Source: a virus
Strand: one strand, 5' to 3'
Length of the DNA stretch: 31,035 nt
UHGV virus genome: UHGV-0099061
The notes beneath the pieces are model-generated. The model ran no database searches. It was not told the origin of the DNA and worked only from the letters and a program-made list of their open reading frames with translations. Made by a program: the position numbers and the translations under genes. Positions 24,495 through 29,465 of this stretch are shown piece after piece (the stretch's first letter is position 1; every line of letters begins with the position of its first letter).

Positions 24495-27400
24495 ATGAGT
24501 AGCGGCGGCGGCAAAGCCAAAACACCAACATTATTGAACGATAACCTGTATCACAAACAGTTTTATCGTGTTTTAGATATTCTCAGCGAAGGGCCGATAT
24601 ACGGTCCGGTAAACCAGAAAGCGCCATTGAATGACGTGATGCTTAATGACACTCCTGTTACTGACGCAAACGGGAATACATCAATTCCGGGGATTAGTAT
24701 AGCCTGGCGCAACGGCACGGCTGACCAATCGCCGATTAATGGTTTTAACGCCATTGAGTCAACCGTTATTGTCAACGCAAAGGTAACTCACGACACACCA
24801 ATAATCAGGACTGTTTCAGATCCAAACGTTACCCGCGTCAGGTTGAATCTTGGTGTTGATGCTCTCGTTCAGTCAGATGAAAAGGGCAATCAATATAATA
24901 CATCCGTCATGTTGATGGTTGATGTTAAACCGTCATCATCTTCTACGTGGTCGCTGATTAAAGACATACACATTGGCCCTGGTAAACAAAGCGGTGAATA
25001 CCTGGAAGCTCACATCATTAAAGCGCCGGATGAAAAACCGTTTGATATTCGCGTTCGTCGCATAACACCAGACAGCAACGGCGATCTATTGCGGAATGAT
25101 ACGCGGTGGAGTAGTTACAGCGAAATAATAGATGATAATCTGTCTTATCCTCATACCGCTGTAGCTGGCGCCGTAATTGACCATGATCAGTATACTGATA
25201 CGCCTACCCGCACCTATCACCTTCGCGGCCTGATTGTTGATGTGCCTGACAACTACAACCCTGAAACGCGCACATATTCAGGTTTATGGCTTGGTGGATT
25301 TAAAAAGGCGTATACCAATAACCCTGCATGGCTTTTCCGGTATCTGGTTAAAAACGAGCGCTTTGGACTTGCTCGACATGCTGGTTACATTGATGTTGAT
25401 GATGGCGCTTTGTACGTGCTTTCTCAATACTGCGATCAGTTGGTTGATGATGGCTATGGTGGCCTTGAACCTCGCATGACGCTTAACGCTTACATTACGG
25501 AGCAAATGAGCGCCCGCGACCTACTGGATAACATCGCAGGTATGTTCCGTGGTATCGCGTTATGGGACGGACAACGTCTTACCGTGATGATTGATGCGCC
25601 ACAAGATCCAATCGCCACCATCACAAATGCAAACGTCGTTGATGGCGCGTTTACTCGTTCAAGTATCGCACGCGCAGAATGCTACAACGCCGTGATCGTA
25701 TCCTGGACTGACCCTGAAAACGGCTGGGAGCAATCAAAAGAATATGTCGCAGATGATAAACTAATCGCCCGTGATGGTTATAACGAAACCACGTTGGAGG
25801 CGTTCGGTTGCACTTCACGCGGGCAAGCGCACCGCGCTGGTAAATGGCTGATCGAAACAGCGAAACGCGAGCCGTCAAAATTCACATTTAAAATGGCCCG
25901 TGACGCCATTCACTTTACGCCGGGGGATATAATCGAGATCCTCGATAATAATCGCGCAGGCGCTCGTTTAGGCGGTCGCATCGTGGCGAACAATGGCAGA
26001 GCGATCACGGTCGACAAGGTTGATTCTGAATATATCGCGGCTGGCGACACCATCAGCTTACTTGATAGCGATGGTAAATTTAAAAAACACCAGATCATCG
26101 GAGTTAACGGGAACATTATCACCCTTGCAGCCGCCCCGGCGTGGATTCGTAACGGCACTGTTTTTGCTGTATCAACCAACGCAGCAAAACCCGTTTTATG
26201 TCGAATCACCAGTGTAGCAGAAACAGAAAATAACAGCGTATACACCATCGAGGCCGCACAGCATGATCCACATAAGCAGGCCGTAGTCGATAATGGCGCA
26301 ATCTTCGAGATCAATAACGACACGCTTAATCACTTCCGCGTGCCGAACATTGAAAATCTGAAGGTGTTAAACGTTGGATCTGAAACGGTTCAATGTCGCG
26401 CAACATGGGAAACACAGACGACAACGCGTCGCCTGACCTTTGAGATTCGCGTGTATAACGCCGAAGGCGCTGTAGTTAAAAGCTACGAAACCACGAATTA
26501 CAGTTATGATTTTTATGGCATTGATGCTGGCAACTACTCATTAGGCATTCGTGGCAGAAATGACACGGGCATGAAGGGTGCGGAAAGCATTGTCGATCTG
26601 GTTATTGGCGCACCAGCGGCCCCAGTTGGCGTTAATTGGGTTCCCGGTGTATTCCAGGCTACAGTTTACCCGATCAGCAGAACAACGCTCACCACTGATA
26701 CCAGTTACGAGTTTTATTACTCAGGTGAAACGCAGATCACTGATCCGGCATCAATAACCACTAAAGCACAATATACCGGGCGTGGTCATCAGTGGACGTT
26801 TGGCGGCATGAATACAGGTCACACATATTACGTTTATGTGCGCGCGCGTAACGCTTTTGGTGTGTCTGACTTTGTGGAAGCGTCAGGTAAGCCAACAGAA
26901 AACTTTGATGAAATTACCGATTACGTCACCAAAGACGTAATGAATTCCAAACAATTTAAAGAAATGGTTGGTGACATTAAAGATCTAGGCGACCGCACTG
27001 ATCTTATCGAAAGCGCTACGAATGACCTTAAAACTGCTACTGACAACCTCAAAACTGCAACTGATAATCTGACCAACATAACTGACGATTTAAGGACTGA
27101 AACTGACAACCTAACCATAGAAACAGGATCAATAAAAGCTGATACTGATACGCTCAAAAAAGAAACGGAAGATCTTTATAAAAAAGTTAAGGAAAACGCC
27201 GATGATATTGGACAGCATGAGTCGAGAATCGACTCGCTGGAGGTGTCTAGCGAAAAAGTTGGCAGCGAACTGGCGCAAGCAAAAGCAAGTCTGCAAAACG
27301 CCTCACTTGCTCTTATTAATAACTCGCTTGCACAGACTAACACTCGCGTAACTCTTACCGCTCAGTACAAGAAAGGCAGGACAGAGACGAAAGCGGAAAT

Positions 27401-29465: not shown

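Follow-up and report, generated by a model that had tools for sequence, protein, structure and literature searches.

The tail tip protein gpJ of phage lambda (8iyk, 8xck, 8xcj) is built, in this order, of a hub, two FNIII domains (FNIII-1/2), an alpha-helical shaft, a beta-prism straight fibre, and a receptor-binding end. Its short shaft is free of internal repeats and goes partly to beta-sheet upon LamB binding (PMC11101478). A long trimeric helical shaft, extending from FNIII-2 to the straight fibre, has been described in the J-homologous central fibres of the F-type pyocins (F7, PMC12874032; F2, 25vf, PMC13455828), which lack a receptor-binding end of their own (PMC13455828). In the F7 pyocin, a 163-amino-acid (aa) coiled coil of this fibre turns into a triangular beta-prism on cell contact, a switch that opens the tip and ejects the tape measure protein (PMC12874032, a 2026 preprint). 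Further, "repeats of different length (positions 950-1,475)" have been mentioned in an alignment of the mEpimmI phages' J proteins (PMC11893012). Here, we describe the J-like gene of a prophage of that group, the UHGV virus genome UHGV-0099061, analyzed over a stretch of 31,035 nucleotides (nt) that we call the window. Taking the findings together, we propose, with a probability of roughly 0.7, that its product possesses a repeat-built helical shaft that connects the tail-tip hub with the straight fibre and the receptor-binding end and that probably switches its fold.

Repeats in the mEpimmI J proteins (PMC11893012), as well as long helical shafts and a fold switch in the pyocins, were already known. 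New relative to those papers are the 7-, 36-, and 226-aa modules of the shaft, their unit-wise polymorphism, a clean deletion that separates the J genes of the phages mEp021 and mEp515, and the match between the repeat unit and a pyocin hairpin. The structural and evolutionary description of the shaft is, in our assessment, highly probable, and the proposals on its mechanism, set out further below, are graded individually.

A J-like central fibre with an expanded shaft

The gene (24495-29465, plus strand) is a 1656-aa open reading frame (ORF) for a J-like central tail fibre or tip attachment protein (RefSeq WP_000094326.1, "phage tail tip fiber protein"). In its siphovirus tail module it is preceded by homologues of three lambda tail-tip genes, L, K, and I, namely ORFs 22570-23274, 23181-24008, and 23951-24481, to which identical prophages give the labels L, C40 peptidase, and tail assembly protein. 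As a prophage with E. coli as host, the window belongs to the mEp021 group, known as the "mEpimmI" phages (PMC11893012), and its J gene shows 83-90% nt identity to those of mEp013, mEp515, mEp021, mEp010, mEp044, mEp554, and MagusPhagus over the first 65-80% of the gene. The mEpimmI J proteins (mEp021, mEp010, mEp013, mEp044, mEp515, and mEp554) are encoded by the same gene and have the same architecture of head modules and units described below but differ in the number of units (4 + 3 here) and in the C-terminal end.

The protein matches the Pfam families FNIII-A_GpJ, Phage-tail_3, Ig_J, Ig_J_second, and Phage_Tail_Tip. The four hub/FNIII domains (aa 88-811; E values of 1e-15 to 1e-34) occur in lambda order, collinear with lambda, and are followed at a distance by Phage_Tail_Tip (aa 1363-1500). 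The best sequence match in the PDB is lambda gpJ itself (8iyk, E = 8e-187). BLASTP against lambda J aligns aa 1-850 with lambda 1-857 at 38% identity over 866 columns, and aa 1360-1525 with lambda 841-997; the proposal, made in a first-pass annotation of this DNA, that the N-terminal ~800 residues are lambda J-like thus stands. Because these two aligned blocks flank them, the ~510 surplus residues fall at the exact place of the alpha-helical shaft of lambda.

The resulting layout, all on the plus strand, starts with the hub domains and two FNIII/Ig domains (aa 1-811, 24495-26927), which are collinear with lambda J 1-818 and end where the Pfam domains stop, at aa 811. They are followed by the expanded, predicted alpha-helical shaft (aa 812-1362, 26928-28580), delimited by the Pfam gap between Ig_J_second and Phage_Tail_Tip, and by the central straight fibre domain (Phage_Tail_Tip, PF09327, E = 2.9e-40; aa 1363-1500, 28581-28994), which aligns to lambda J 841-997. 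The C-terminal, putative receptor-binding region (aa 1501-1656, 28995-29462) has no Pfam match. This Pfam gap spans 551 aa here and 26 aa in lambda, whose shaft is given as 53 aa in the structural paper. Moreover, Pfam detects no match in J to PF12421 (Ig_GpJ_C), the C-terminal receptor-binding domain for which lambda scores 247 bits, and J scores 725 bits with the NCBIfam model lambda_TipJ (NF049904), well below its cut-off of 1950. We therefore regard the protein as a member of the J family by its domain set and gene position and not as an equivalent of lambda J.

Repeat anatomy of the shaft

The repeats were delineated with Tandem Repeats Finder (TRF), a repeat-family search, lag autocorrelation against codon-shuffled controls, and a hidden Markov model (HMM) of the unit. 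The shaft consists of about 13 heptads and then of two super-repeats of 226 aa (678 nt), each made of a 45-aa head module and three or four in-phase 36-aa (108-bp) units, with the allele in the window having four units in the first and three in the second. The register layout and the HMM parse give the order heptads, head module H1, one degenerate unit, four units, a 13-aa linker, head module H2, three units, and a non-repeated stretch.

The heptad segment (T-D-x-L-x-x-x; aa 835-927, 26997-27275, plus strand, as are all the shaft modules) was recognized by its heptad layout, by its hydrophobic period, and by TRF, which reports a period of 21 at 27015-27064; identity at a lag of 21 nt exceeds the controls with z = 5.1 to 5.8. 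Super-repeat 1 opens with H1 (aa 928-972, 27276-27410; QAKASLQNASLALINNSLAQ...YKKG.T.TKAEI), found as repeat family D5 and in the HMM parse, after which come the degenerate unit (aa 963-991) and the four units of block 1 (aa 997-1140, 27483-27914; families D1-D3), which score 61-69 bits each with the HMM. Super-repeat 2 opens with H2 (aa 1154-1198, 27954-28088), defined by repeat families, the HMM parse, and a predicted helix break, and continues with the three units of block 2 (aa 1187-1294, 28053-28376; HMM parse), the site of copy-number polymorphism. Both head modules share a conserved Y-K/R-K-G. The non-repeated last part of the shaft (aa 1295-1362, 28377-28580) aligns in a phmmer comparison with the segment of the F2 pyocin fibre (25vf_A) that holds a hairpin with Glu1039/Arg1043.

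Identity at a lag of 108 nt stands at z = 11.7 and at 216 nt at z = 7.5, and the spacing is exactly 108 nt within each block, as the two phased blocks of the first-pass annotation implied. TRF does not report this period because most copies are only 60-75% identical. The strongest autocorrelation of the region is at a lag of 678 nt (0.46 against 0.27 in shuffled sequences, z = 9.2). Hence, what had been described as a ~145-bp duplication is present as the head of the larger super-repeat, though diverged: 27276-27420 and 27954-28098 share 67% nt identity along their 145 nt and 83% within the first 59 nt, and the 45-aa module is 67% identical at the aa level. A perfect repeat reported as 42 bp does exist, but its true length is 43 bp; its copies (28094-28136 and 28202-28244) form the longest exact direct repeat within 26900-28600 and provide a substrate for crossover. 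The five elements that had been noted for this region, the 21-bp heptads among them, are all present and in frame in one ORF, and the whole repeat-built shaft extends beyond the coordinates given for it (27022-28420), over 26928-28580.

A profile search with the 36-aa unit recovered only 85 clusters among 1.84 billion representatives, one of which is a 1922-aa J-like protein with 14-15 units. Another protein (P0016; 1834 aa) is a trimeric autotransporter adhesin with a YadA-type membrane anchor, in which about 12 units match the 36-aa profile (E = 4e-31). Either this type of unit is common to phage fibres and the stalks of bacterial adhesins, or the likeness is convergent. Some repeat-bearing fragments (P0003-P0005) carry the precomputed Pfam family PF28217, which may model part of the shaft.

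Whole units are gained and lost by recombination

Within the J clade, the length of the shaft changes in steps of whole modules. An exact-sequence look-up found the 1656-aa protein of the window on 94 public contigs, six of them complete genomes, a 1620-aa allele on 18 contigs, and 1692-aa and 1728-aa alleles on one contig each, and a 1764-aa allele groups with the 1728-aa form at 90% identity. With at most two aa mismatches, the five lengths from 1620 to 1764 aa correspond to -1, 0, +1, +2, and +3 units, and the indel always falls at aa 1200-1250, which is the 43-bp exact repeat in block 2. Two complete genomes encode a J with one or two additional 108-nt units and 1-2 substitutions in ~5 kb, and the allele with one unit fewer occurs in IMG/VR contigs with no other difference. 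The identical suffix of the longer alleles begins at 28094, and their added units are the chimera expected of an unequal crossover in the 43-bp repeat. Further, the J gene of mEp515 is that of mEp021 minus exactly 1002 nt (334 aa), without a single other mismatch and with the junction inside homologous units. Relatives differ in the heptad segment by 14, 21, or 35 aa, always whole heptads. Among 37 complete genes of the clade there are 19 shaft lengths, from 216 to 709 aa; measured by the Pfam gap in the phages scanned (mEp013, mEp021, mEp515, and mEp044), the shaft spans 411-745 aa.

These observations show that unequal homologous recombination between units adds or removes whole units, and the comparison of J lengths among related phages bears out the predicted hotspot of length variation. 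Enlargement of the shaft about ten-fold over that of lambda is best explained by tandem duplication. Whole 36-residue units could be used as length-adjusting modules in the engineering of tail fibres.

It might be objected that the array itself is an assembly artefact, with its copy number collapsed or inflated from short reads. Assemblies do break within the array, as had been foreseen: "partial" proteins begin inside the repeats (one of them, P0004, starts at J aa 1220 and represents 43 member sequences), and two IMG/VR contigs terminate there. Two word-indexed homologue searches point the same way. The one with the repeat region returned 12 matches, mostly fragments, and was saturated by repeat words, and the second returned 46, mostly "partial"; both were too shallow for a deep alignment and served as evidence on contig breaks. 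Against an artefact, however, the 2566 nt of 26900-29465 recur, unchanged or with at most two base differences (99.9-100%), in six complete chromosomes of E. coli, which come from different strains and laboratories and in which the gene is labelled "phage tail tip fiber protein." With the exact protein on 94 contigs in all, the copy number in the window is sound, and the other alleles differ from it by clean whole units, also in complete genomes. An artefact is hence an extremely improbable account of the array and is refuted for the allele of the window. Annotators and assemblers should nevertheless be prepared to meet this gene broken up, or with an incorrect number of repeats, when short reads were assembled.

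Helical character of the shaft

No proline occurs in the 526 aa from 835 to 1360, and hydrophobic residues recur with a period of 3.54 in the heptads and of 3.60 in the 36-aa units, both above the 99th percentile of shuffled sequences. The unit length of 36 aa equals 10 helical turns and was read by hand as 7+11+7+11. A first monomer run of AlphaFold2 (AF2) predicts helices at J 819-912, 923-1166, and 1183-1351, with low confidence at J 912-933, just upstream of H1 and overlapping its start, and at J 1162-1185, within H2. DSSP on the AF2 model places a helix break only at H2 (J 1167-1182). The second monomer run gives a single unbroken helix at J 1188-1352 with a predicted local distance difference test score (pLDDT) of 95-98. 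Foldseek searches with the second model returned weak matches (best E = 2e-3, template modelling [TM] score < 0.2), the top four of which are structures of the central fibre of lambda or A8 gpJ.

By these predictions, the shaft is a long helical segment with coiled-coil periodicity at the site of the short shaft of lambda, and the forecast of a long coiled-coil insertion is supported by a proline-free, helical extra segment at just that position. Because both flanking domains are trimeric in lambda J and in the pyocin fibres, we infer that the shaft would be a parallel trimer. When fully helical, it would measure ~75 nm (507 residues predicted as helix x 0.15 nm). We also considered a bundle folded back on itself in antiparallel fashion and rejected it: the three helical segments are unequal (94, 244, and 169 aa), and a length-matched bundle fits poorly with the infectivity of both mEp515, which has one head module, and mEp021, which has two (PMC11893012), and with the tolerance of single-unit indels.

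A fold-switch signature in the 36-aa units

The F7 pyocin offers a specific parallel for a shaft of this kind. In its beta-prism the strands each carry the motif SxSxxMxxLxS, with the direction alternating strand by strand, and enlarging the small residues blocks killing but not assembly (PMC12874032). A fold switch has been predicted for 21 of 24 siphophage fibres (PMC12874032). Direct homology links the distal shaft and straight fibre of the protein in the window to the pyocins: phmmer aligns J 1204-1482 with residues 911-1185 of the F2 pyocin fibre (25vf_A) at E = 1.7e-29.

The consensus of the 36-aa unit, ASVxRLDxAIA-DExS-ARxxAISxVNA followed by a loop, can be read as a reversed copy of the pyocin motif, a four-residue turn, and a forward copy, that is, strand (11), turn (4), strand (11), and loop (10). 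Super-repeat 1 (aa 928-1153) has 14 matches to the motif, against 3.1 +/- 1.7 in shuffles, and super-repeat 2 has 11, against 2.6; the total of 25 in aa 928-1294 compares with ~5.7 expected, and none of 1000 shuffles attains the observed counts. The matches alternate strictly between reverse (R) and forward (F). No such excess was detected in the heptad segment (1 against 0.7 expected) or in the rest of the protein; F7 likewise has a motif-free N-terminal segment of ~100 aa in its shaft, which there forms the "spine." The pyocin hairpin with Glu1039/Arg1043, which aligns to J 1330-1355, shares this R(11)-turn(4)-F(11) layout. An alternative motif register set on the invariant Glu19/Arg23 pair of the unit matches, by a hand check, four of five motif positions, but it overlaps both perfect matches and was not adopted.

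Six "small" positions of the unit (7, 15, 17, 22, 24, and 32) are occupied by small residues in 100% of the clade's 169 distinct units and in 98-100% of the 44 units taken from distant clusters; at the other positions the share is 37-44%. Two of the six, 7 and 32, are on the face opposite the helical core, and there a plain coiled coil sets no such limit. The same layout recurs in PDB entry 9l9p, chain S, a J-like protein of 1172 aa with a tandem triplicated 33-aa unit (ASLTDIREVIA-TETE-ALSREIDQLKA-QIGDDIQ) directly before the straight fibre. It differs from the protein of the window in having three units only, of 33 and not 36 aa, no head modules, and no evidence of polymorphism. F7 differs too, its switching region being 163 aa long and non-repetitive, whereas the corresponding part here would comprise ~400 aa of tandem 36-aa units in a duplicated 226-aa super-repeat that is polymorphic in copy number.

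Since the units carry both the strand-turn-strand layout and the SxSxxMxxLxS motif of the pyocins, the shaft is probably a collapsible spring and not a passive spacer. The narrower claim that the units are tandem copies of the pyocin-type switch hairpin is a tentative one, to which we would give somewhat less than even odds. The switch was demonstrated by experiment in the F7 pyocin and is here read from the sequence.

Several considerations weigh against a switching shaft. Two AF2 monomer runs, from alignments of 11 and 38 sequences, yielded the helical state only and no beta-prism; this is weak evidence, as the published switch predictions required a multimer model and deep alignments, the prism coming from deep alignments and the coiled coil from shallow ones (PMC12874032). 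The motif statistics are inflated, because the units are paralogous copies and the matches are therefore not independent, and the distant units were picked with an HMM of the window's own units. The motif itself was taken from the text of the preprint and not from its alignment figure (PMC12874032). Lambda and T5 are without an extensive switch according to He et al. (PMC12874032), and a switch of 400 aa would be 2.5 times larger than any observed. Finally, the trimeric state and the 75-nm length are themselves deductions, and the mEpimmI paper is silent on a long tip fibre; it reports tails of ~130 nm, with the tip fibre unmeasured (PMC11893012).

A possible contractile tip fibre and competing explanations

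We envisage that before infection the long, thin shaft would carry the receptor-binding tip across the polysaccharide of the cell surface. Once the tip had bound, the shaft would collapse from its distal end into a beta-prism of roughly 24 strands and ~12 nm, and this would pull the mouth of the tail tube ~50 nm toward the outer membrane and free the FNIII closure. On this basis we put forward, as a speculative idea rather more likely to be wrong than right in its full form, that this phage, though non-contractile, has a tip fibre that contracts: ~400 switching residues would convert a ~60-nm coiled coil into a ~12-nm beta-prism, reeling the virion in by ~50 nm, past the polysaccharide to the outer membrane, and opening the tail. 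The number of units, and thereby the reach and the stored energy, would be tuned in nature by unequal crossover, to which the five-step allelic series and the span of 216-709 aa would testify. The tolerance of whole-unit indels would be explained by the fact that they keep both the helical phase and the strand parity. The earlier view of the repeats as an insertion that lengthens the fibre probably describes the pre-infection state only.

The shaft could instead be nothing more than a passive spacer, a stable trimeric coiled coil that holds the tip far out to reach outer-membrane proteins past O-antigen or capsule, with length tuning the reach and the fibre bending, as it does in T5 and lambda, to let the tail come to the membrane. 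The confident, all-helical AF2 models would fit this, as would a shaft length that varies freely from 216 to 709 aa, the provenance of the hosts, which are all natural, mostly human E. coli isolates and likely smooth or encapsulated, and the known shielding of receptors by O-polysaccharide (PMC12312913). However, it leaves unexplained why small residues are kept at the exposed positions 7 and 32 and the flanking 15, 17, 22, and 24 and why the units have the layout of the pyocin hairpin. A rigid rod of ~75 nm would also hold the tube mouth away from the membrane unless sharply bent, and all six characterized relatives plate on rough K-12 regardless of the length of their shafts. A passive role thus appears unlikely, at perhaps one chance in five. 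Less likely by far is that the shaft, chiefly through its two head modules, serves as a docking rail for side fibres, to which duplication of the super-repeat would have added a second tier. This idea draws on the F-type pyocins, in which a glycine kink of the shaft, G955 in F2, is the place where three side-fibre trimers attach (PMC13455828), and on the suggestion by He et al. that short stretches without coiled coil are attachment sites of side fibres (PMC12874032). Consistent with it, both heads have the Y-K/R-K-G and low AF2 confidence at or next to them, with the helix break only at H2, and a fibre gene lies downstream of J (29946 onwards). Infective relatives, however, carry one or two head modules, and the rail would not explain the 36-aa units, the greater part of the shaft's length. 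It is compatible with a fold-switching shaft and not exclusive of it; by analogy with the G955 kink, the head modules may additionally be hinges or side-fibre docking sites.

How the membrane is approached and what energy opens the tail are questions only now emerging for long non-contractile tails, the pyocin fold switch dating from 2026. The prophage family described here is a natural dose series of the putative switch element, with five otherwise identical alleles one 36-residue unit apart. Together with mEp021 and mEp515, which are cultured, both OmpA-dependent, and a clean 334-residue deletion apart, it would allow a test of reach, of the scaling of the switch, and of the number of units needed.

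The receptor-binding end and host range

AF2 predicts J 1522-1656 to be beta-rich, with block pLDDT values mostly of 66-89. The final 137 aa (1520-1656) share ~30% identity with the LamB-type ends of mEp010, mEp013, mEp044, and mEp554 and are unlike the OmpA-type ends. Strain FAH has the same last 137 aa on a diverged, shorter shaft, and each C-terminal receptor-binding type among the 37 clade genes is found on several shaft lengths. Shaft length and receptor-binding end hence assort independently. Indeed, mEp021 and mEp515 both depend on OmpA (PMC11893012) although their shafts differ by 334 residues, and the LamB-dependent mEp013 and mEp044 (PMC11893012) have shafts of 422 and 745 aa. Because of this independence, the suggestion in the first-pass annotation that repeat length affects host range finds no support. 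On hosts that are smooth or capsulated, the length of the shaft may nonetheless be of consequence, as J-type fibres are kept from their outer-membrane protein receptors by O-polysaccharide (PMC12312913).

The antisense ORF within the shaft

On the minus strand, the J gene contains an ORF of 234 codons with a GTG start (27953-28657), the longest antisense ORF of the gene, and on that count a real overlapping gene might be considered. When the synonymous codons of J are permuted, though, the longest antisense run reaches 188 +/- 42 codons and is at least 234 in 13% of permutations. No Shine-Dalgarno sequence was found upstream of the ORF, its product would be of low complexity and rich in Leu, Ala, and Ser, and stop codons interrupt it in six relatives (mEp013, mEp021, mEp515, mEp010, Magus, and FAH). 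A gene can thus be dismissed for practical purposes, and the ORF is a by-product, as had been surmised, of the Tyr-poor, Ala/Ser/Thr-rich composition of the shaft.

Neighbouring genes

Several minus-strand ORFs are seen in the plus-strand tail module of the window. Two genes at 16763-17807, inserted between the tail chaperone and tape measure genes, look like a moron: one encodes a 219-aa VasI/TagO-like protein (PF11319, E = 1e-15) of a type VI secretion-associated family, and the other a 124-aa protein with weak similarity to BamE/DUF7738. An 84-aa ORF (20364-20618) just downstream of the tape measure gene encodes a ParE-like toxin domain (PF24732, E = 9e-12). The interval 21666-22373, flanked by the M-like gene and L, holds an 82-aa piece of the C-terminal domain of a KilAC/ANT antirepressor along with a 149-aa ORF that has no match in Pfam; here the window exceeds by ~1.1 kb a prophage of E. 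coli MS 21-1 that matches it otherwise.

In mEp021 and mEp515, a 188-aa gene (1937-2503 of the mEp021 sequence L002 and of the mEp515 sequence L003) lies immediately upstream of J and overlaps the start of J. It is labelled putative HNH endonuclease in mEp021 and hypothetical in mEp515 and is missing from the window and from the other relatives. Downstream of J, a small minus-strand ORF (29506-29808) occupies the place where the mEpimmI phages have genes for superinfection-exclusion lipoproteins (PMC11893012). It is followed on the plus strand by the start of a fibre gene (29946-31035), cut by the end of the window and annotated as "tail fiber" or "head spike fiber domain" in relatives, whose product is a candidate side fibre that might dock on the shaft of J.

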